A DNA stretch of 64,000 nucleotides from a virus (Duplodnaviria > Caudoviricetes), in the IMG/VR virus record IMGVR_UViG_2795386114_000004, positions 4,641-68,640 of that record; one strand, given 5' to 3'. Both the position numbers and the translations under genes were made by a program. Each line of letters begins with the position of its first letter. The stretch's first letter is position 1. Below the pieces are notes generated by a model. The model was not told the DNA's origin, ran no database searches, and saw nothing but the letters and a program-made list of their open reading frames with translations. This document shows positions 4,513 through 56,485 of the stretch, piece by piece.

Positions 4513-4868
4513 GCCGCCCCCAGGCCCGCCCGAGGGCCGACCACCAGCATGCAGCAGACCAGGCCCGGCAGATGCCCGGCCAGTGGGTCCTCGCGGGGAC
4601 GTACGCCAGCAGCGCCAGCGCCGTCGCGGCCGCGCTCCAGGTCCGCACCGGCGAGAAGGCTCCCGGCTACAGGCCCGCCGGAGCGTATGAGTCGCGCACC
4701 GAACTGACGCAGGACGGCGCCGACCTCTGGGTCCGCTACCTCGCGACGAGCGGCGGCCGCGGTCCCCGCGACGACTACCGCGACTCGCTGACCTCAGGAC
4801 TGACCGAAACCTTCGACGCCTTCTCCAGCCGCCTCGACGCGGCCGACCCCTCCCGGAGGACTCGATGA
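4509..4868 (+). CDS. Hypothetical phage protein
   Basis: ATGA coupling; ARQMPGQWVLAGTY...LWVRY. Confidence 0.7.
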   Translation: MSRPQARPRADHQHAADQARQMPGQWVLAGTYASSASAVAAALQVRTGEKAPGYRPAGAYESRTELTQDGADLWVRYLATSGGRGPRDDYRDSLTSGLTETFDAFSSRLDAADPSRRTR

Positions 4869-7330: not shown

Positions 7331-8841
7331 CCAGACCCCTCACCGCCCACCGGCACCGCTCCGGCATCCTCCTCACCGGCGCGATATGCCTGACGCTCGC
7401 CGCCGGATGGGCCGTCCACCACGGCCTCCAAGCCGCCCACTACGGGCACGGCAGCAGCCGCCTGGCCGCCGTGTGGGCCGTAACTTTCCTGCTGCTCGCC
7501 ACCCAGACGGCGATGTACCACGCCGAGCGCCCGCACCGTCTCTCAACGCGGGCCCACCGCCAGCTCGACGCGCTGCACGTCGCGGTGCTGCTGCCCGTCT
7601 ACAACGAGGACGAGGGCTACCTCAGGCTCGGCCTGGAGTCGATGCTCGCCCAGACCCGCCGCCCCGACAGCGTGCACATCGTCGACGACGGCTCCACCCA
7701 CGGCGACTACGCCACCGTGCGCGCCTGGTGGACCCAGGCCGCCACGGAGGCCGGGATCACCACCACATGGAAGCGAACCGCCAACAAGGGCAAGCGGCAC
7801 GCCCAGGCCGCCGCAGTTGGGGCGAGTCCCCAAGCCGACGTGTACGTCACCGTCGACTCGGACTCCTGCCTCGCACCCAACGCCCTCGAGGAACTGCTGC
7901 TGCCATTCGGGGCCCGCTCGCGCCGCACACTCCTCGGCCGCCGACAGAAGCCCGTCCAGTCCGTCGCCGGGCTCGTGCTCGCCACCAACCACCGCACGAA
8001 CCTGCTCACCAGGATCTGCGACCTGTGGCTCACCACCGGGCAGCTCACCGACCGCTCCGCCCTGTCCGCGACGGGCGCCGTCCTCGTCAACTCCGGCCCG
8101 CTGGCCGCGTACCGCGCGCCGATCGTCAGGGACAACCTCGGCTCATACCTCGACGAGTGGTTCATGGGCCGGCTCGTGAACTTCTCCGACGACAGCATGC
8201 TGACCCTGTACGCGCTCCTGCGGGGCCGGACCGTCCAGCAGCCGACCGCGGTCGCGTTCACCGCCCTCCCGGAACGGCCCCAGCACTTCGCCCGCATGTA
8301 CCTGCGCTGGATGCGCGGCTCCACCATCCGGTCCGTGTGGCGCTTCCGCTACCTGCCCCTCACCAGCTGGCCCTACTGGGCGCACCTACTGCGCTGGTTC
8401 CAACTCGCCCTGTCCAGCGCCGTACTCGTCTGGCTGCTCATCGTCGAGCCAGCCGCCTACGACCGCACCCCGCCGGCGAGCTTCCTGATTGTGCCGTTCC
8501 TGATCGGCTGGGCGCAGGGCCTGCGCTACCTGTCCATCACTCGCAACGACGAGACCTTCGCAGACCGCCTCATCACCTGGCTGCTGATGCCGCTCGCCGT
8601 CATCTGCTCCTGGACGGCGCTCCGGGCCATGCGCTGGTACGGCATGGCCACCTGCGCCCGCACCGGCTGGGGCACCCGCCAGAACGGCGCCGAAGTCACC
8701 CTCGACGCCGCCCCGGTGCCGGACAACGACACGGAGCAGCTGCCCGTCATGAAGCTGCTCGACCCCGACTCCGAAACCACCCTCACCGTGCCCATCCCAC
8801 GCCAGCGCACCGCCGTGCCCCAGCCCGAAGGAACGCGATGA
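7327..8841 (+). CDS. Processive membrane GT2 glycosyltransferase, hyaluronan synthase/NodC/chitin synthase-like
   Basis: PVYNED, IVDDGS, NKGKRHAQ, TVDSDS, NSGPLAAYR, SDDSMLT, YLRW, C-terminal WGTR; N- and C-terminal TM helices. Confidence 0.9.
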   Translation: MTRPLTAHRHRSGILLTGAICLTLAAGWAVHHGLQAAHYGHGSSRLAAVWAVTFLLLATQTAMYHAERPHRLSTRAHRQLDALHVAVLLPVYNEDEGYLRLGLESMLAQTRRPDSVHIVDDGSTHGDYATVRAWWTQAATEAGITTTWKRTANKGKRHAQAAAVGASPQADVYVTVDSDSCLAPNALEELLLPFGARSRRTLLGRRQKPVQSVAGLVLATNHRTNLLTRICDLWLTTGQLTDRSALSATGAVLVNSGPLAAYRAPIVRDNLGSYLDEWFMGRLVNFSDDSMLTLYALLRGRTVQQPTAVAFTALPERPQHFARMYLRWMRGSTIRSVWRFRYLPLTSWPYWAHLLRWFQLALSSAVLVWLLIVEPAAYDRTPPASFLIVPFLIGWAQGLRYLSITRNDETFADRLITWLLMPLAVICSWTALRAMRWYGMATCARTGWGTRQNGAEVTLDAAPVPDNDTEQLPVMKLLDPDSETTLTVPIPRQRTAVPQPEGTR

Positions 8842-14812: not shown

Positions 14813-14889
14813 GGGCCCGTAGCTCAGGGGCAGAGCAGGCGCCTTAAAAGCGCGACACGTCGCCGGTTCGAATCCGGTCGGGTCCACCA
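14813..14889 (+). tRNA. tRNA with UAA anticodon (reads the Leu codon TTA) on a short-variable-loop body, CCA encoded
   Basis: Acceptor GGGCCCG/CGGGTCC, D arm GCTC/GAGC, anticodon loop CT-TAA-AA (14845-14847), T arm GCCGG-TTCGAAT-CCGGT, A73, CCA. Confidence 0.85.
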
Positions 14890-16237: not shown

Positions 16238-16310
16238 AGCGCCGTAGCTCAGTTGGCAGAGCAGTTCCCTTATAAGGTTCAGGTCGCGGGTTCGAGTCCC
16301 GTCGGCGCCA
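16238..16310 (+). tRNA. tRNA-Ile-like with UAU anticodon (reads ATA); partly degenerate, no encoded CCA
   Basis: AGCGCCG/CGGCGCC acceptor (A1:C72 mismatch), GCTC/GAGC D arm, loop CT-TAT-AA (16271-16273), two U-U mismatches in the anticodon stem, GCGGG-TTCGAGT-CCCGT T arm. Confidence 0.7.
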
Positions 16311-16342
16311 CTCAAACACCCACCTTCTACTGGGAGTTGAGC

Positions 16343-20154: not shown

Positions 20155-21212
20155 GTGCCCACGAGGACGCCGTCAAATCGCTGGTCAACGGCGGCTACGC
20201 ACAACAGATCGCGCGCGAGATCCTGGCAGCCGTCGTCGCCGAGGACCGTGCCGAAAGCCAGCGGAGGTGGGCGGCGAAAATCCTCGAGGTTGGAACCGCG
20301 AAAGGCTGGTCGACGTGGGCCGCTGCGTTCATGGACCCCGACATCGAGTTCGTCGACACCGGCATGCCGTCGACCGAGACCATCGTCGCTGAGCTCAGGC
20401 GCCTGGACCGCGTCAAGATCCTCCGCGACGCCGCCAGCGCCATCAACAACTTGCCGCAAGACTATGAGTGCGACCCCGGACGGGGCGACGCGGCGAACCT
20501 ACTGCGCCGCATGGCTGACGAAGCCGAGCGGGGGAAGGACACCAGCGGCGGCCGCCAGCTGCGCGAGGGCGAGTCCACGGCCGCTTCCGCCGCTTCGGCA
20601 GGCGACGACGTTGCTGCCGAACGCAACTGCCTCGCTATGGCCGTGATGTTCGCCCTCCAGTGGAAACCGGACGCGCCTATGGGTCTGCGTGAGGGCATCG
20701 AGGAGATCCTCTCGTCGATGCCCACGGTCAGGGAGAAGAGCTACCGCCTGGCAGTCGAACCGCTGGTCGTGGCCCGGTACGACGTGGCGATGGAGCCCGC
20801 GCCGGAGGAAGGGCCGGTGTTCACGATCGGCGCCGTCGCCGAGGACGGGCAGCCCGTGGCGTTGTTCTTCGACCAGGGGGCGCGCGCGAAGGTCGCGGGC
20901 TGGCTCGGCGCGGACCTCATCGCTGCCGACCAGCTCGCGCACTGCGCCAGTTTCGAGATCCCGTGGCCTGGTCAATGGAGGGATCTGCTGGTGCAGCGCA
21001 GCTACGCGGGCGGCGACCGGTGGATGATCTGCGACAGGGAGGGGCGCAGCTGGCACCGCGAGTTCGGCTTCGTGTACGAGCGCCTGGACCTCGACGAGCG
21101 CACCCGCACCGACACCCGGTTCCCCCTCGCTGAGGCATGGCCGTTGGCGCAGCGGATCGCCGCCGGAGAAGCGCCGGTGCGCGCCGAGCACGGTGAGGGA
21201 GAGCAGCCGTGA
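20151..21212 (+). CDS. Mosaic hypothetical phage protein
   Basis: 353 aa, coupled at both ends. Confidence 0.7.
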   Translation: MSAHEDAVKSLVNGGYAQQIAREILAAVVAEDRAESQRRWAAKILEVGTAKGWSTWAAAFMDPDIEFVDTGMPSTETIVAELRRLDRVKILRDAASAINNLPQDYECDPGRGDAANLLRRMADEAERGKDTSGGRQLREGESTAASAASAGDDVAAERNCLAMAVMFALQWKPDAPMGLREGIEEILSSMPTVREKSYRLAVEPLVVARYDVAMEPAPEEGPVFTIGAVAEDGQPVALFFDQGARAKVAGWLGADLIAADQLAHCASFEIPWPGQWRDLLVQRSYAGGDRWMICDREGRSWHREFGFVYERLDLDERTRTDTRFPLAEAWPLAQRIAAGEAPVRAEHGEGEQP

Positions 21213-22786
21213 GCCTCTCCACCCTGCGCGGAGCCGTCGAGTGGTCCACCATGCACCCGGTGCCTGCCGCCCTCGTGGCAGTGCTGGCGCTCGCCCTGGT
21301 GGCCGTACTCGTCTGGACGGCCACCAGGGCCGTACGCGCCGCGCGCCGCCTGCCCGCAGAGGTACGGGTCGCCGCCCTCGGCGCCGCGGTGTGTACCGCG
21401 TACAGCGGGGACACATCCTGGCGGTTCGCTCGCGACCACCTCGGCATGGCCGACCTCACCGAGCGCATCATCATGTTCGGTGCCGGCGAGGGAGCTCTGC
21501 TCGCATGCGCCACGATGGCCCGCGCGAACAAGCAGGCCACCGCCACCAAGGACACCGCCGGTAGCGCAGGAGTTGCCGGCGCCTTGGTCTGGTGCATCAC
21601 CGCGGTGCAGATCGTGCCCGCGTTCGTCGAGTCGGGCTGGGTGGGCGGCATTGTCCGTGCCACGTTCGGCCCGGTCATGGCTGGCCTGCTGTGGCACCTG
21701 GCGATGGGCCTGGAGATCCGCATCGTGCGGCCCGGCGCCCTGTCCACCGGCCTGCTCGCGGTCGTGGGCCGTGAGCTGCGCGAGCGGCTGCTGTCCTACC
21801 TCGGTCTCGCGGCCCGGGACCGTACCGCGGAGCAGATCACCCGCGACCGGGCCATGGCGCGCGCCGTACGGCTCGCATCCCGGCCGAAACGCGGCGCCTG
21901 GGGGCGCCGCCGCCTGGCGAACGCGGTCGCCAACGCCGGCGTCGGCAACGACGGGGAGCAGCGGCACCGGCTCCTCCAGGACCTCGCCGCCCTCCGCAAC
22001 GCCGAAGAGCTGGCGACCGTACCCCTGCCGTCGCCGTGGTCGAGTACACCCGTACTCGCTGAGCCGTACCCGCGGACACTGCACGGCCTCACCGTCGCCC
22101 AGCTGCAAGCCATGGATCCGCTCGACGCCGTGCTTCGAGTACATGCCGCGCACCCCGAAGCGCCCCCGGCCGGACTCGCCAGCCTGTGCACCGAGTACGG
22201 CGTACCCGTCTCCGAGGCCCGGGTACGCGTGGCCCTACACGCCGTACCTAGGCCCACGGCCCCGCGACCGGCCGCCGCACCCGCCCACCCGCACCTCGTA
22301 CCCGTACCCGACTCGGCGGAGGACCCCGTACCCGAGCGCTTCGGGTACGGGTCGCAGATCGGTGGCCTGCACCTCGACGTCGAGACCGAAGCAACGGTGC
22401 GCCGCGAGTTCGCCTGTGCCGTACCCGCCGCGTTGATCCCGGTACTCCGTACCCGGACCGAGGAGGAGGCCCGCGTCCCTGTGGGCACCAGCGCTGGGCC
22501 GGCCAGGGAACGCTCGGAGGCATCCGATGCCGACCGACCGGCAGCACGTACCCGGCCGGGCACCGACGAAGTACCCGGCGACGATCGCGTACCTGACCCC
22601 TCGGGTACGGGCGAGCAGGAGACCGAAGACCTCATTCAGCGCGCCCGGCTCGTCGACGCCGAACACCGCAGGACACACCGAGGACAGCCAGCGCCCATCC
22701 GCGTTCTGAAGAAGCAGCTGCGCATCGGCCAGGCGAAAGCCGAGATCGTGCGCGCCGCACTCAACCTGGAAGGCACCAAGCAGTGA
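21209..22786 (+). CDS. Multi-TM protein with Pro-rich linker and C-terminal HTH (Spd/DUF2637-like)
   Basis: N-terminal TM helices (CTAYSGDTSWRFA, GPVMAGLLWHLAMGLEIR); C-terminal PIRVLKKQLRIGQAKAEIVR. Confidence 0.7.
   Translation: MSLSTLRGAVEWSTMHPVPAALVAVLALALVAVLVWTATRAVRAARRLPAEVRVAALGAAVCTAYSGDTSWRFARDHLGMADLTERIIMFGAGEGALLACATMARANKQATATKDTAGSAGVAGALVWCITAVQIVPAFVESGWVGGIVRATFGPVMAGLLWHLAMGLEIRIVRPGALSTGLLAVVGRELRERLLSYLGLAARDRTAEQITRDRAMARAVRLASRPKRGAWGRRRLANAVANAGVGNDGEQRHRLLQDLAALRNAEELATVPLPSPWSSTPVLAEPYPRTLHGLTVAQLQAMDPLDAVLRVHAAHPEAPPAGLASLCTEYGVPVSEARVRVALHAVPRPTAPRPAAAPAHPHLVPVPDSAEDPVPERFGYGSQIGGLHLDVETEATVRREFACAVPAALIPVLRTRTEEEARVPVGTSAGPARERSEASDADRPAARTRPGTDEVPGDDRVPDPSGTGEQETEDLIQRARLVDAEHRRTHRGQPAPIRVLKKQLRIGQAKAEIVRAALNLEGTKQ
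22019..22610. repeat. Dispersed array of the 8-mer CGTACCCG / CGGGTACG inside a CDS
   Basis: 20 GTAC cores counted in about 590 bp; 8 exact forward and 3 exact reverse 8-mers, in all reading frames. Confidence 0.85.
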
Positions 22787-23406
22787 TCAGCACCGAGACC
22801 GTGGACGCGCTCAAGGACGAGCTCGTAGAACACCTCAGATCGCGTACGGAGTGGGACGAACAGCCCGCCCTGTTCACTCTCCACCAGGAGGGCCAGGGCG
22901 ACGTCCTCCTGGTGCAGATCCCGGTGCCGGAAGCGCTCTGGGATGCCGGCGGGCACCCGCCGACAGTCGTCGCCTCGATCGCGGCGAGTGTGACCGGTTT
23001 GCCGCGCTGGCCCGACGGCTCACATCTGCTCGTCGCTCCCTGGGCGGGGCCGCTCATCGGGGCCGCGTTCCGGTACGAGGCTTACGCGGTCGCCTCCGAC
23101 TCCCCGCACCCGGCGGCCCAGGAGGCCACGCGTCGCCGGACTGCTGGCGGGTCCGTTCCGCGCTTCAAGGACGTTCCTGGCCGGACGGAACAAAGGTGCA
23201 TCACCGCGGTGGATGTGGATGGCGGCCGGTATATGGCGAGCGCCACCCGGATCACCGAGACCGAGCTGGAGGCCGCCGAACCGGTCGTCCACTACCTCGC
23301 GTTCGCTGACCCGAAGCGGGACACGTTGTCCGGCAAGGTCGTAGACGCCACCAATCGCCTCCTCAACGCCGTCAGGCCCGCTCCGACGAAAGGTTCCGCG
23401 CGATGA
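22783..23406 (+). CDS. Hypothetical phage protein
   Basis: GTGA coupling, 207 aa. Confidence 0.7.
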   Translation: MISTETVDALKDELVEHLRSRTEWDEQPALFTLHQEGQGDVLLVQIPVPEALWDAGGHPPTVVASIAASVTGLPRWPDGSHLLVAPWAGPLIGAAFRYEAYAVASDSPHPAAQEATRRRTAGGSVPRFKDVPGRTEQRCITAVDVDGGRYMASATRITETELEAAEPVVHYLAFADPKRDTLSGKVVDATNRLLNAVRPAPTKGSAR

Positions 23407-23753
23407 AGCCCGTCGTGTGCAACTTCTACATCCGCACCCCGGCCGGAGACGGCCAGTTCCACTACGACTCCGTCGACATCAGTAGTCCGCACCACGACGC
23501 CAAGATGCACACCCCTTACCCGCCGCAGGTCGGCGACCTCATCCACCTGTGGGACTTCGTCAAGAAGCAGGGCGGAACCTACGAGGTGATCGCACGGCAG
23601 TGGTTGCACTCCAGCTACGGATCGACGAACTGGCCCGTGCTGGAGCAGCAGCCGACCGTGGGCCCCCTCCTGGATCTCATCGTGGAGCCCGCCGAGGGCG
23701 TTTTCCGTGACGAGGCGCAGCGCCGGGACGGCGAGGAAGGCGGAAGTGAGTGA
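23403..23753 (+). CDS. Hypothetical phage protein
   Basis: ATGA coupling; PPQVGDLI. Confidence 0.7.
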   Translation: MKPVVCNFYIRTPAGDGQFHYDSVDISSPHHDAKMHTPYPPQVGDLIHLWDFVKKQGGTYEVIARQWLHSSYGSTNWPVLEQQPTVGPLLDLIVEPAEGVFRDEAQRRDGEEGGSE

Positions 23754-28314: not shown

Positions 28315-28998
28315 TCACACTCCGATGAAGCTCACCGTTTCCGTCATGGCCGCCCGCCCGGTACGCAGCCTCGGCACGCCTTCCTTCTCAAATCCCACTG
28401 AGATGCCGCAGAAGAGCACGAGCCCGTCATCGGCTCCGACTATCTGGCTGACAGTCTTGCGGTACATGGTCCACATCACCTGGGGGCAGCTGTGCAACCC
28501 TTCCGCCCTCAGCAACAGCATGACCGTCTGCAAGTACATCCCCGCATCACCCCACTGGCCGGGCCCCATCGTCCGGTCGAGGTAGCAGAACAAGACGACC
28601 GGCGCCCCGAACGCCTCCGAGTTCAAGGCGGCGATCTTCTGGGGCCGGTCGGGGTCGTTGCGCTCGATTCCCAGGGCTTTGTACCGCTGGGCGGCCGCGG
28701 CGGAGAAACGGTCCAGATACGGCGAGGTCAGTTCGTCCGGGTACATCGGGTACTCCCGCTCATCACCCGGGTCTCCAGCCAGTGCCCTGGCGGTTGCGCG
28801 TCTCTTCAGTTCGGCCAAGGGTTCGCCAGTCACGACATAGACATGCCACGGTTGGAGGTTCCCACTGGACGGAGCCCGCGTCGCTGCGGTCAGCACTCGT
28901 TCGAGTACCTCCCTGGGCACCGGCTCATCGCTGAACGCCCGTACGGCCCGGCGACTGTCCACGGCCTCATACACATCCACGTCTTCGCGTCCTCTCAT
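28315..28998 (-). CDS. Nitroreductase family protein
   Basis: SRRAVRAF, RAPSSGNLQPW, DAGMYLQTVML..GLHSCPQ. Confidence 0.92.
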   Translation of the reverse strand: MRGREDVDVYEAVDSRRAVRAFSDEPVPREVLERVLTAATRAPSSGNLQPWHVYVVTGEPLAELKRRATARALAGDPGDEREYPMYPDELTSPYLDRFSAAAAQRYKALGIERNDPDRPQKIAALNSEAFGAPVVLFCYLDRTMGPGQWGDAGMYLQTVMLLLRAEGLHSCPQVMWTMYRKTVSQIVGADDGLVLFCGISVGFEKEGVPRLRTGRAAMTETVSFIGV

Positions 28999-32420: not shown

Positions 32421-32791
32421 TGGAGGTACCCCCTGGACTGGGGGAGCGAGGCCGGCGGATGTGGGAGGAGTCCCTGGCGATCTGGTCTCTGACTCCGGCG
32501 CATCTGGTGCTGCTGGAGGAGGCTTGTCGGGTCGCTGACCGGCTTGACCTTCTGAACACCATGTTGCTCGCGCTCTCCGGGGATGTCAACCCGGATGTCG
32601 CGCAATTCGCTGATATTTCGGGACTGTTGGCGGAGTCTCGGCAGCAATCCAGTGCTCTCAAGTTGCTGTTGGCGGAGATTCGCCAAGGTCAGACGGGTTC
32701 TGTCCCGGCCAAGGAAGAGCCGGCGGGGGGTGTGGGTGTCTCCGACCTCACCAAGCGAATCGCTGACCGCCGCCGCCAGGCCGAGGGTTGA
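32420..32791 (+). CDS. Terminase small subunit
   Basis: PPGLGERGRRMW..LLEEACRVADRLD..LLAESRQQ..LLAEIR; position. Confidence 0.8.
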   Translation: MEVPPGLGERGRRMWEESLAIWSLTPAHLVLLEEACRVADRLDLLNTMLLALSGDVNPDVAQFADISGLLAESRQQSSALKLLLAEIRQGQTGSVPAKEEPAGGVGVSDLTKRIADRRRQAEG

Positions 32792-34265
32792 GGTCCACCC
32801 GCCGTACGCGTACACGCTCGGCGCGGAGGCCTGCACCCTCGCCGCGCGCGCCGGCCTCATCGCGGATCCGTGGCAGCGCGACGCCGTAGACCTGCTGCTG
32901 GCCTGCCGGGACGACGGCAAGTGGGCGTGCTACGAGTACGCCGAGCTCGTAGCACGCCAGAACGGCAAGGGCGGCATCCTCGAAATCCGTGTGCTCGCCG
33001 GGTTCCTGCTCCTGGAAGAGCAGCTGATCCTGTGGTCGGCCCACGAGTACAAGACCTCGATGGAGGCCTTCCGGCGCGTCCGGGCGCTCTTGCGGAAGCT
33101 CGGCAAGCAGGTCGGGAACAACGAGAACCTCATCGAGGTCGACGGTGTCCTGATCAAGATCTCGAACACCAACGGCGAAGAGGGCTTCGAGCGCCTGGAC
33201 ACGGGCGCCCGCATCAAGTTCGTCGCCCGGTCGAAGGGCAGCGGCCGCGGCTTCAGCGGTGATTTGATCATCATTGACGAGGCGTTCGCTTACACGCTGC
33301 TCCAGCAGGACGCGCTCACCCCGACCCTGAGGGCCCGCCCGAACCCGCAGATCATCTACACGTCGTCGCCGCCCCTCGACGGCGCCAGCGGGGACGTGCT
33401 GTACGCGCTGCGCGCGCGAGCCGAAGCAGGCGGGGACGACTCGCTCGGGTACCGCGACTGGGGGGCCGAGGGCGACCTGGACCATCTGGAGAAGGTGGAC
33501 CTTGACGACCGGTGCCTGTGGGCGGCGACCAACCCGGCCTGGGGGCGACGCGTCACCGAGGAAGCCACGCTGCGCGACCGGCGAGGCATGAGCCCAAAGG
33601 GCTTCGCCCGGGAGATCCTCGGCATCTGGCCGCGCCGTTCGCAGGGCAACGCCGTCATCGACCCGCGGCTGTGGGCCACGATGGCCGACGAACACTCCCA
33701 GCGAACGGCCGCCGGCGGCGTTGCGCTCGGCGTCGACATCAGCCCCCTGAGGGACTACGCCGCGGTGTGCGTGTACGGCGTCCGCGCCGACGGCCTCGGT
33801 CACGTGCAGCTCGCCGACTACCGCTCCGGCACGAAGTGGCTGATCCCGCGTCTCGTCGAACTACGCGATGCTCTCGGCCCGATCGCGCTGGCCATGGGCC
33901 GCGGCACCCACGCCTTCCTCGACACCGACCTCAAAGAGGCCGGGTTTCAGTTGCCGGAGGACAAGGATGCGCCCGAGGCTGGCGACCTCGCGGTGACCGG
34001 AGCGATCGAGATGGCGGCCGCCGCGGGCCAGGTCCTCGAAGGCGTACGCGAGCAGGCGTTCCGGTACGTGCCGAACGAGCACCTCGACACCGCGGTGGCC
34101 GGCGCGAAGACCAAGCAGAGCGGGGACACCATCGCGTGGGCGCCGGCCGGATCCGACGTCGAGATCAGTCCGCTGGTCGCCATGTCCGTGGCCCGCTGGG
34201 TCTACGTCAGCCGCTCCTTCCTCCTGGCGGGCCAGCAGTACGACGTCCTCGCCTCGATCTTCTGA
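32736..34265 (+). CDS. Terminase large subunit (start approximate)
   Basis: PWQ, VARQNGK (Walker A), LIIIDEA (Walker B), ALGVDISP nuclease motif. Confidence 0.95.
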   Translation: MSPTSPSESLTAAARPRVEVHPPYAYTLGAEACTLAARAGLIADPWQRDAVDLLLACRDDGKWACYEYAELVARQNGKGGILEIRVLAGFLLLEEQLILWSAHEYKTSMEAFRRVRALLRKLGKQVGNNENLIEVDGVLIKISNTNGEEGFERLDTGARIKFVARSKGSGRGFSGDLIIIDEAFAYTLLQQDALTPTLRARPNPQIIYTSSPPLDGASGDVLYALRARAEAGGDDSLGYRDWGAEGDLDHLEKVDLDDRCLWAATNPAWGRRVTEEATLRDRRGMSPKGFAREILGIWPRRSQGNAVIDPRLWATMADEHSQRTAAGGVALGVDISPLRDYAAVCVYGVRADGLGHVQLADYRSGTKWLIPRLVELRDALGPIALAMGRGTHAFLDTDLKEAGFQLPEDKDAPEAGDLAVTGAIEMAAAAGQVLEGVREQAFRYVPNEHLDTAVAGAKTKQSGDTIAWAPAGSDVEISPLVAMSVARWVYVSRSFLLAGQQYDVLASIF

Positions 34266-54719: not shown

Positions 54720-55007
54720 GTGGACGCGGCCATGGTGACGGCGATCGCGGCGCTGATCGCTGGGCCCGTGGCCGCGGTCGCCGCCATGTACGGCTCGCGC
54801 GGCGCGACCAGGGCAGCCCGGGAGGGCACCGTCGTGACCGGATTTAACTCACTCACCGACCAGCTCCAAGAAGAGCGCGCCAACCTGCGTAGCGAAAACG
54901 CGACGCTGAGCAGCGAAAACGCGACTCTGCGCACTGAGCTCGCCGCGAAGGACCTGGAAATCGCACGCTTGCGGCTCCTGCTGGAGCAACGGGGGAGTAC
55001 GCCGTGA
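54720..55007 (+). CDS. Lysis-region TM plus coiled-coil protein
   Basis: GGGGAGG RBS; N-terminal TM, heptads (SENATL twice). Confidence 0.75.
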
Positions 55008-55690
55008 CGCGCACGCAGAACGTGCTGTACCGGGCTCGGCATCTCCTGTGGGCTCTGGCGATCCTGCTGTTCCTGGGCGGCGCGGCCGCCGTGTCGTGGC
55101 TGCTCGTCGACCGGGCGCAGCTCGCCGACCAGCTGGCGCGCGAGGCGGACCTGCGCGGGACCGCAGTATCGACGTTGGCCGGGGACGTGCGGGCCCTCAG
55201 GGAGCAGGTCCGGCAGGAAGGCGCGACGCCGGTCGCGCCGGACCCCACGAAGGCAGTCGAGGACCTCCCGGCCCGCAGCGAGGTACCGGTACCGATCCCC
55301 GGACCTCCCGGACCGCCCGGCCCTTCGGGTTCAGCCGGTCCGTCAGGTGTCCCCGGTCAGCGGGGCGCCGACGGCAAGACCGGGGCGAGTGGCGTGCCGG
55401 GGGCCGTTGGACCCTCAGGCCCCGCAGGACCGTCGGGGGCTCCCGGCGAGAGGGGCCTCGCTGGGCCGCCCGGGCCCGCCGGCCAGGATGGCGCGGACGG
55501 CGCGGACGGCCGAGACGGAACCAACGGCCGGGATGGACAGACGTGCCCTGACGGGTATTCCCTCCAGGCGCCCGACTACGACCCGGCCGCCCTGGTCTGC
55601 CGCAAGGACGGTGCCCCGCAGCCCGGGGACAGCGAGTCCCCCTCTCCACTCGCCCTCGCTCTGGACCCGCAGCGCCGCCAGTACGCCTGA
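55004..55690 (+). CDS. Membrane-anchored collagen-like protein
   Basis: N-terminal TM; long Gly-X-Y run; TCPDGY..LVCR. Confidence 0.85.
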
Positions 55691-55825: not shown

Positions 55826-56485
55826 ATGCTCAACGCCATGTTGCGCGGCCTGGCTGCCGCCGCCCTCGCCGTCCTGCCCTTCACCGCCTCCCCGCCCGCC
55901 CATGCCGCAGAGACCCTGCCGCTGAGCGAAGCCGTCGCAAGCCTGCCCCTCGGGATCGAGTCCCGCGACGGCTACAGCCGCGACAGCTTCCGCCACTGGA
56001 ACGCCGGCGACAACCCGTCCGACGGCTGCAACACCCGAGCCGAGGTGCTGAGCCACGAGGCTGTCGAACCGCCCACCGTTGGCCCCGGCTGCCGTCTGAC
56101 GGGCGGAAGCTGGTGGTCCTACTACGACGCGACCTGGGTGACGTCCGCCTCAGGCCTCGACATCGACCACATGGTGCCCCTCGCCGAGGCGTGGGACAGC
56201 GGCGCATCGGCCTGGACCCCACAGCGCCGCGAGCGGTACGCCAACGACCAGGGCGCCGAACAGTCCCTGGTCGCCGTCACCGCCAGATCGAACCGAAGCA
56301 AGTCCGACCAGGACCCCGCCGAATGGTTGCCGCCGGCCGCCGACGTGCACTGCCGCTATGTGGCTGAGTGGGTGGGCACGAAGCTCCGCTGGGGCCTGGC
56401 TGCCGACGAAGTTGAGCTGGGCGCCCTGGAGAACGTGGCCGCGGCCTGCCCGGACCAGACAGTGACGTACGAGCCCGCCACGTAG
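55826..56485 (+). CDS. Secreted HNH nuclease (DUF1524 family)
   Basis: Signal peptide ..PAHA; GYSRDSF, CNTR, LDIDHMVPLAEAW, LVAVTARSNRSKSDQDPAEWLP. Confidence 0.9.
   Translation: MLNAMLRGLAAAALAVLPFTASPPAHAAETLPLSEAVASLPLGIESRDGYSRDSFRHWNAGDNPSDGCNTRAEVLSHEAVEPPTVGPGCRLTGGSWWSYYDATWVTSASGLDIDHMVPLAEAWDSGASAWTPQRRERYANDQGAEQSLVAVTARSNRSKSDQDPAEWLPPAADVHCRYVAEWVGTKLRWGLAADEVELGALENVAAACPDQTVTYEPAT

Follow-up and report, generated by a model that had tools for sequence, protein, structure and literature searches.

A word array selected at the DNA level in the gene of a predicted membrane protein with a C-terminal helix-turn-helix domain in a tailed provirus

The gene, its protein and the word array

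The DNA analysed here, hereafter the window, is a stretch of 64,000 nucleotides (positions 4,641 to 68,640) of the IMG/VR provirus record IMGVR_UViG_2795386114_000004, a Caudoviricetes genome of 68,640 bases which is rated complete by CheckV. A gene for a protein of 525 residues in this Streptomyces provirus carries a dense array of the word CGTACCCG, and the array, the protein and their possible relation are the subject of this report (Table 1). The gene starts with a GTG codon that overlaps the stop codon of the upstream gene, and its own stop codon overlaps the GTG start of the downstream gene. An earlier reading of the window, made without database searches (the sequence-only reading), had described a membrane-anchored protein with a C-terminal helix-turn-helix (HTH) and an array hidden in its gene, which it took for either a self-binding site tethering phage DNA to the membrane or a clt-like site for a TraB translocase supplied in trans.

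The protein was modelled by AlphaFold2 with 120 homologues; residues 1-200 were confidently all-helical, and further helices extended up to residue 270. The hydropathy profile showed clear membrane segments at residues 18-36 and 122-140, the remaining helices being moderately hydrophobic. The predicted architecture is that of an integral membrane protein with a C-terminal HTH part, and the anchor and the HTH proposed earlier were borne out by the model, the hydropathy and the searches with the C-terminal domain described below. The middle domain includes the conserved peptide EYGVPVSE, the V-P codons of which are one copy of CGTACCCG; this domain had no relative in the PDB and is unrelated to the C-terminal domain. 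The whole protein had no match in Pfam (none even at an E-value of 10), PHROGs or NCBIfam, a fold search with the full 525-residue model gave nothing at E≤0.001, and no ATPase or FtsK-SpoIIIE motor domain was found in the protein by Pfam or in the AlphaFold2 model. A feature search of the ESM Atlas with residues 40-285 gave DUF2637 clusters as the nearest (0.93 and 0.92), followed by SpdB_N (0.85), and clusters with HTH_SpdB_C were among the neighbours; these similarities are used as leads only. One homologue bears the UniRef name DUF2637.

There are 20 GTAC tetramers between 22019 and 22608, where about 2.2 would be expected in 590 bases at the frequency of the window (241 in 64,000 bases, 3.8/kb), so that the recount agrees with the 20 against about 2 given before. 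Exact copies of CGTACCCG or its complement CGGGTACG number 11 in the gene, eight on the + strand and three on the other, and the other 62.4 kb of the window contain four copies, three forward (18060, 25272 and 51197) and one reverse (62339). When one mismatch was allowed, 20 sites were found in the 1,578-base gene versus 146 in the other 62,422 bases. The + strand copies read V-P five times (xxC GTA CCC G), Y-P once and R-T-R twice, all three frames being used, and the complement copies encode R-V-R, G-Y-G and G-T; the frame reading is thus also in accordance with the 11 exact copies in both orientations and all frames reported earlier. The array spans the DNA of residues 271-467, which is chiefly disordered linker. 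A C is preferred immediately before the word (66% of 218 pooled copies), and the flanks are otherwise free of signal.

For the null model, 3,000 synonymous coding sequences of the same 525-residue protein were drawn at the codon frequencies of the other genes in the window, and the copies were counted without overlap. The redraws gave a mean of 0.60 copies of CGTACCCG and a maximum of 4 versus 10 observed, and none of the 3,000 reached the observed count; when synonymous codons were shuffled within the gene itself, the copies averaged 1.27 and did not exceed 6. The codon GTA accounts for 13 of the 21 Val codons in residues 271-470, compared with 62 of the 1,195 Val codons in the window's other called genes. 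The word is selected at the DNA level, because synonymous resampling of the same protein yields 0.6 copies on average and at most 4, and the claim of selection on the DNA with use of the uncommon GTA codon, as made in the sequence-only reading, is upheld by these two comparisons. An explanation by amino-acid repeats alone, which had been set beforehand as the ground for giving that claim up, fails, since resampling falls short of the count and three frames and both strands are used. No tandem unit or longer repeat was found under the array by repeat finders, the unit shared around the core being at most about 12-21 bases, and tandem duplication was ruled out as the source of the array. No Rfam RNA family matched the region 20500-23500 at E≤0.1.

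Table 1. Coordinates of the gene, the protein regions and the word copies in the window. GC3, GC content at third codon positions; pLDDT, predicted local distance difference test score of the AlphaFold2 model
Feature	Position	Strand	Basis or remark
Gene for the 525-residue membrane protein (predicted)	21209..22786	+	ORF (open reading frame) list; GC3 0.84; homologue alignment from residue 1
Residues 1-270, predicted helical membrane domain (DUF2637/SpdB_N-like) and conserved helices 207-270	21209..22018	+	pLDDT 80-96
Residues 290-346, small four-helix domain of unknown family	22076..22246	+	pLDDT 95-97
Residues 347-467, disordered Pro/Ala/Arg-rich linker, with most of the array	22247..22609	+	pLDDT mostly <50; composition
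Residues 468-525, C-terminal three-helix HTH, FtsK-gamma-like, proposed word reader	22610..22783	+	pLDDT 95-98
Whole array, 11 exact and 6 one-mismatch CGTACCCG	22018..22609		spacing irregular, 6-127 bases
CGTACCCG exact	22065..22072	+	reads Y-P
CGTACCCG exact	22201..22208	+	V-P of EYGVPV
CGTACCCG exact	22220..22227	-	reads R-V-R
CGTACCCG exact	22297..22304	+	V-P; 2-base overlap with the copy at 22303
CGTACCCG exact	22303..22310	+	V-P
CGTACCCG exact	22327..22334	+	V-P
CGTACCCG exact	22342..22349	-	reads G-Y-G
CGTACCCG exact	22420..22427	+	V-P
CGTACCCG exact	22448..22455	+	reads R-T-R
CGTACCCG exact	22547..22554	+	reads R-T-R
CGTACCCG exact	22602..22609	-	reads G-T

Word arrays and C-terminal domains among the homologues

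Among 8,000 candidates scored, 851 homologues were found at E≤0.001, and the best 120 were 405-580 residues long, 50-65% identical and nearly all from Streptomyces. We fetched 48 genome loci and 65 viral contigs and analysed 44 and 62, respectively; the loci dropped were L006, L033, L045, L048 and L049 (short), L092 and L122 (cut genes) and L114 (ORF leaving the locus). Word arrays were present at the same place in about 100 homologues, which belong to prophages of Streptomyces and to some plasmids. In 36 of 45 genes (the 44 genome loci and the window), one 8-mer stood out at an uncorrected Poisson P<1e-6, and every time the enrichment was in the 3' half of the gene. The window's word CGTACCCG was the commonest (19+1 copies in L019, 14+3 in L014 and 14+0 in L021), and other homologues had GGTACCCG, CCTACCC, TGTACCTG, CGCACCCG, CGCAGCCG, CGCATCCG/GCGCATC or GGGGACCG, of which L047 has 25+3 copies. 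The homologues L080, L041 and L091 are shortened or read the array in another frame, giving 'YP'-rich tails, and are probably frameshifted copies or sequencing errors at repeats.

The sequence-only reading had proposed as a test, set beforehand, that homologues with other words should co-vary with the HTH, and this is what we found. A C-terminal pattern for the gamma-like domain was matched by 78 of 107 genes, of which 7 were unclassified and 4 were dropped for want of a membrane-domain landmark. With K or R at residue 501, which lies in helix 2, [GC]TACCC arrays were present in 53/53 classified genes, and with Q at this position GCGCA[GT]C-type arrays were present in 14/14. Unrelated C-termini go with still other words, i.e., AGGACGC in six of the seven genes with an excisionase-like type and [GC]GGGACCG in all three with a 'RVQLREI' type. 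The word class changes once on the tree of the C-terminal domain versus four times on the tree of the membrane domain (two of them on supported branches), and a 3' cassette of array and candidate reader has therefore moved between membrane-domain backbones. An excisionase/MerR-like C-terminus ('STVRxWVAAGRI...') was seen on membrane-domain homologues in the viral contigs L104, L106, L109, L112, L118 and L119, the genes of which contain 4-7 copies of (C)AGGACGC, on the coding strand only in five and as 2+2 in L104.

In the K/R class (63 genes pooled), the core GTACCCG occurs at 6.52/kb versus 0.205/kb in 839 kb of flanks, with 554 copies on the coding strand versus 93 on the other, and at least five copies were present in 55 of the 63 genes. 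In the conserved peptide [YH]GVPV, V-P is written GTACCC in 48 of 49 K/R-class genes and in 0/3 Q-class genes. After residue 250, 501 of the 614 V-P of the K/R class are GTACCC, and the Q-class linkers contain eight V-P in all, one of them GTACCC. The word makes the peptide and not the reverse, because the Q class keeps GVPV with other codons and its linkers hold 8 V-P versus 614. A peptide-only origin of the array is ruled out by this codon control together with the synonymous resampling. The gene thus shows that a signal in the DNA can dictate the amino-acid make-up of a disordered linker, which is rich in V-P only where the word is GTACCC.

The C-terminal domain, which is the candidate reader of the word, appears related to the gamma domain of FtsK. 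A profile of 73 C-terminal sequences, compared with all PDB sequences, gave FtsK gamma first (2j5p, E 0.0035; 2ve8/2ve9, 0.0052; 2j5o, 0.0061; 5dcf, 0.015), and 6 of the 8 matches listed were FtsK chains; a profile of 40 sequences found FtsK gamma at E-values of 0.0058-0.019. FtsK_gamma (PF09397) was also the Pfam family matched by most members (8/40, best 1.7e-4), and in three host genomes this model finds chromosomal FtsK only. Both FtsK gamma and the winged helix of TraB are reported to recognise 8-base words (PMC3583192, PMC4447253). The order of domains was reversed in the homologue L054 from a Prauserella coralliicola plasmid (gene 7437-8657), in which the membrane domain follows a gamma-like HTH at the N-terminus ('RRAGIGAGRASRLLKQW') and a long linker; the candidate reader and the membrane part are therefore shuffled as modules.

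By tblastn, the membrane domain was found in 20 actinobacterial plasmids, never the whole protein, and the INPHARED phage collection gave no match. In the 17-kb plasmid of S. canus, the homologue lies two genes downstream of traA-traB (40% identity over 138 residues, E 1e-15), and this match to a traB-linked gene, together with the proximity to DUF2637 and SpdB_N in the ESM Atlas, makes the Spd link drawn in the sequence-only reading an apt one. This plasmid (L050) contains at 7865-8565 about 20 copies of CCGCGACA/TGTCGCGG in 700 bases with a 'DRDT' peptide repeat, which occupy the 3' half of the SpdB-like gene and the DNA just past it, 1.3 kb after traB, and which could be the clt of that plasmid or the membrane protein's own site. 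Twelve copies of AGGTTCCG were found in L051 immediately before a DUF87 ATPase gene, and nine copies of TGTCGCCC in L057. The homologue on an 18-kb plasmid of S. goshikiensis lies directly before a DUF87 ATPase gene, and those on a Kitasatospora plasmid and a Mycobacterium plasmid are divergent from a parA operon. Many homologues are on contigs of 43-80 kb, and L011 is a 40.8-kb record deposited as a complete plasmid ('plasmid unnamed2'); some members of the phage family may for these reasons be episomal prophages (phage-plasmids).

Function of the array and competing explanations

The array most likely docks the C-terminal HTH of the protein encoded by the same gene, so that the two form a self-contained module tethering or handing over phage DNA at the membrane, a reading which we hold with slightly better than even confidence. 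Of the two functions put forward in the sequence-only reading, the results lean to the self-binding tether to the membrane and make a clt for a TraB in trans less likely, because about 60 prophages that differ in their other genes have retained the same word and because the word tracks the protein's own C-terminal domain. The protein would be inserted into the membrane by its DUF2637/SpdB-like helical domain and is probably oligomeric, by analogy with SpdB2, which oligomerises (PMC4447253). Reader domains on disordered linkers of 120 residues would bind the GTACCCG cores by avidity, a mode of binding suited to sites that are irregularly spaced and numerous. By such binding the phage DNA may be labelled and retained at the membrane, probably at hyphal cross-walls or septa and at times when it replicates, segregates or passes from one mycelial compartment to another; DNA pumps of the host may assist there. 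Three aims can be envisaged, namely to anchor the DNA while it replicates, to secure stable inheritance for an episomal form, and to let the DNA through cross-walls, perhaps with the aid of host pumps; these are suggested by the Spd literature, by the plasmid homologues beside traB or parA and by a phage without partition genes. We infer the identity of the word's binder, the avidity of an oligomer and the biological role, and likewise a 'centromere' role with movement across cross-walls. A precedent is SpdA2 of pIJ101, which binds a site within its own gene (PMC4170104).

Several observations weigh against the self-binding module. The assignment to FtsK gamma is marginal, with E-values of 0.003-0.02, and the window's own 61 C-terminal residues matched no Pfam family, FtsK_gamma included. 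The alignment by hhalign with the gamma domain of three Streptomyces FtsK brought helices 2 and 3 together (window LKKQLRIGQAKAEIV, Streptomyces FtsK LQRKLRVGFAKAGRL) at a P of 4e-4 and a probability of 34%, and Foldseek with a model of the 61-residue domain gave generic HTH matches only, at E≥1, with FtsK gamma at rank 36. The beta-hairpin of a winged helix is absent, the protein ending about 7 residues past helix 3 and the models being free of strands. Because the profile scores are marginal, the Foldseek matches are generic and the wing is missing, we regard the domain as FtsK-gamma-like with moderate confidence. Helix-3 positions of E. coli FtsK gamma contact bases, and the equivalent positions vary freely within the CGTACCCG class. 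The joint inheritance of array and C-terminal domain could be plain linkage, since the two adjoin in the DNA, and independent-contrast tests with 2-3 supported pairs were underpowered (sign test p 0.25 and 0.5). A rule linking R515 to T at word position 3, which held in 28/28 and 8/10 on 38 genes, was rejected when it failed with the viral loci added. No clear array was present in the homologues L022, L034, L082 and L090 or in the plasmid homologues L001, L054 and L055. SpdB2 of pSVH1 is reported to bind DNA non-specifically (PMC4447253).

The array resembles the clt loci of pSVH1, pJV1 and pWTY27 in being a cluster of a short word of 7-9 bases, mostly direct, on a mobile element of a mycelial actinomycete, with the 11 exact copies of the phage in a ratio of 8:3 by strand and the pooled copies in a ratio of 554:93. 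Coding overlap is possible in both, the clt of pWTY27 including 16 bp of traA (PMC3583192), the word CGCACCCG of one sub-class resembles the pJV1 repeat CCGCACA[C/G][C/G] (PMC3583192), and the HTH of the candidate reader appears to be of a type related to FtsK gamma. The differences are that the phage element lacks a TraB/FtsK motor, that the proposed reader is on a motor-less membrane protein, that the host element is a tailed prophage, and that arrays of the family have 11-28 copies over about 600 bases of linker code, whereas known clt have 4-9 copies in 50-175 bases. Like SpdB2 and SpdB, the window protein is predicted to be an integral membrane protein with a C-terminal DNA-binding part, its plasmid homologues adjoin traB, and SpdB_N and HTH_SpdB_C clusters are listed nearby in the ESM Atlas. 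Homologues of SpdB2 have been noted on actinophages and were speculated to spread phage DNA (PMC4447253). In contrast, DNA binding by SpdB2 is described as non-specific (PMC4447253), a cognate site array for it was not found in the articles consulted, and SpdB of pIJ101 has no pairwise similarity to the window protein. The SpdA2/sps pair of pIJ101 is alike in that a small DNA-binding protein has its site in its own coding region, with an effect on stable inheritance, and differs in that SpdA2 is a soluble protein, sps consists of one to three palindromes of 12 bp and the word is conserved between plasmids (PMC4170104). ParB/parS differs as well, since no ParA or ParB family member was found among the window's called ORFs, although two plasmid homologues are divergent from a parA operon.

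FtsK gamma with FtsK-orienting polar sequences (KOPS) and SpoIIIE with SpoIIIE recognition sequences (SRS) share with the phage protein a small C-terminal HTH behind a long linker on a membrane protein, helices 2 and 3 being alignable. FtsK gamma reads an 8-base polar word. The window protein differs by having neither motor domain nor wing, and the phage words are packed in one array of 600 bases instead of being skewed along a chromosome. DNA in replication or segregation is also tethered by DNA-binding proteins that are anchored at the membrane or the pole, such as p16.7 of phi29 and RacA of B. subtilis with its ram sites; RacA uses a cluster of about 25 sites and p16.7 binds without sequence specificity. 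These belong to other protein families, and their sites are not in the protein's own gene. Earlier work has described the 8-bp repeats of the TraB-clt system, has characterised SpdB2 as a membrane protein that binds DNA and has homologues in phages, and has reported binding of SpdA2 inside its own gene (PMC4447253, PMC3583192, PMC4170104). Our literature search, which covered mainly sources outside subscription journals, found no account of word arrays in the linker codons of SpdB/DUF2637-like proteins and no description of a gamma-like reader on such proteins.

Among the alternatives, the one which survives best, as a minority possibility, is that the array is a clt- or KOPS-like loading site for a pump in trans, i.e., the TraB of a resident element or an FtsK-family translocase of the host. 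The phage genome would then be moved between hyphae or compartments without a capsid, and the membrane protein may merely assist, as SpdB2 does TraB. The 8-base word lies mostly in one orientation, as clt repeats do (PMC4447253, PMC3583192), the plasmid homologues L050 and L051 hold their arrays near traB or a DUF87 ATPase gene, and the hosts have several FtsK-family genes (11 matches in genome G001 and 9 in G002), including a 477-residue FtsK-like ORF about 40 kb from the array of L032 in G002. However, Pfam scans, which were used for detection after phmmer was dropped since three TraB/Tra queries missed each other, found no match to FtsK_SpoIIIE (PF01580) in the complete provirus of 68,640 bases and none among the window ORFs. 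The absence of traB, noted earlier for the window, holds for the whole record. An FtsK/TraB domain was likewise absent from all 77 large ORFs within 7 kb of the gene at the genome loci; many of these ORFs are terminases, portals and capsids, by which the genome loci are recognised as prophages. The window's neighbour genes recur in 0-3 of 96 related loci and the best-shared early genes in 14-18, and the module travels without conserved neighbours and without TraB. The FtsK-family gene closest to the array in G001 is the chromosomal ftsK, at a distance of 126 kb, and no FtsK-family gene was present within 100 kb of the 11 scattered CGTACCCG pairs of this genome. About 60 prophages from many species share one word, whereas the words of clt loci vary by plasmid (PMC3583192). 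The word switches along with the protein's own C-terminal domain, and the host FtsK gamma is nearly invariant across three genomes and therefore cannot account for several word classes. Loading in trans and self-binding could coexist.

A more far-reaching proposal, which we consider unlikely as a whole, is a two-part 'address label' made of a motor-less FtsK-gamma-like reader on an SpdB-like pore protein and the word array in its own linker codons. It would dock the genome at cross-walls and feed it to host pumps of the FtsK type, so that naked DNA spreads through the mycelium without capsid or TraB. If this were true, the phage or an episomal prophage would spread independently of capsids and of any TraB, the linker would serve twice, as a flexible arm in the protein and as a binding platform in the DNA, and linker and reader would co-evolve as one exchangeable cassette.

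It is improbable that the array is a regulatory or titration site (autoregulation, transcription roadblock or host-factor sink) unrelated to the positioning of DNA. Small HTH proteins on short clusters of direct repeats do regulate Streptomyces genes, e.g. BldC (PMC5859096), and the array is within an early operon with overlapping start and stop codons. But 11 to 28 sites in a coding region far exceed the regulatory need, the proposed reader is membrane-anchored, and different words are found in phages of the same hosts. A replication origin with iterons inside the gene of its initiator is, in our estimation, quite improbable. Such an arrangement is familiar from phage lambda, where ori sits in gene O, the repeated words are in the linker-coding part of the gene of a DNA-binding protein, and Pfam recognises no replication initiator, helicase or polymerase in the window. 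The origin is nevertheless unlikely because an AT-rich unwinding stretch is missing (the lowest 60-base GC in the gene is 63%, and the window minima of 40-52% are elsewhere); the product is moreover a predicted integral membrane protein with no Rep family match, the array-bearing plasmid homologues are in transfer or partition regions of replicons with other candidate replication genes, and a 414-residue HTH_36 protein (821-2065) is the better initiator candidate. Scarcely credible is the last alternative, that the pattern has no function in the DNA and simply follows from a peptide repeat rich in Val-Pro or from slippage during replication, for although the linker is rich in proline and 84% of the pooled coding-strand copies read V-P (466/554), the synonymous redraws, the rare GTA codon, the copies in the other two frames and on the opposite strand, the Q-class genes with their GVPV in other codons and linkers nearly without V-P, and the lack of a tandem unit all speak against it.

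The preferred reading of a self-binding module bears on the passage of DNA across Streptomyces cross-walls after conjugation, on the role of Spd proteins, and on the use of the same route by phages. To our knowledge, TraB-clt and SpdA2-sps are the only defined protein-site pairs in the mycelial transfer and spread of DNA in Streptomyces. The family offers a testable pair of a 58-residue domain and a word of 7-8 bases in roughly 100 natural examples, with candidate natural specificity variants in K/R501 with GTACCCG and Q501 with GCGCATC-type words. In annotation, such arrays may flag cis sites which gene callers hide inside coding sequence.

The provirus, host genomes and further observations

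Pairs of the word spaced within 30 bases were counted in five host genomes, which had 5-26 of them versus 2-4 for the reversed control (both strands summed). Dense word clusters were present only at the homologous gene, to which 13 of the 24 close pairs of G001 and 9 of the 25 of G005 belong. Outside the prophage too, close word pairs were several times commoner than the reversed control in G001, G002, G004 and G005, and the chromosomes of these four genomes show short (GTACCC)n hexamer runs, e.g. CGTACCCGTACCCGTACCCG, at scattered places.

The provirus has genes for an HNH endonuclease, portal, prohead protease, capsid, tape measure and amidase, and a 560-residue ORF at 32583-34265 without a Pfam match occupies the place expected for the large terminase; no integrase was recognised anywhere in the record. 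The early region contains genes for HTH_36, DUF5131, HU, WhiB and DUF932 proteins and two tRNA genes. These are tRNA-Leu(UAA) and tRNA-Ile(UAU), at 14813-14889 and 16238-16311 of the window, which read TTA and ATA; no tRNA-Val for the GTA codons of the array was found in the phage. TTA and ATA are among the rarest codons in high-GC Streptomyces, and TTA is bldA-dependent. Between the early and late regions, a nitroreductase-family gene lies on the minus strand (28315-28998) in a stretch of lower GC (66%) and has the appearance of a moron or cargo gene. The lysis and tail genes are followed by those for a collagen-repeat protein (55004-55690) and a protein with a GmrSD_C-type endonuclease domain (55826-56485), and beyond about 56 kb of the window by those for a HAD hydrolase, a DUF6415 protein and a PCMT-like methyltransferase.

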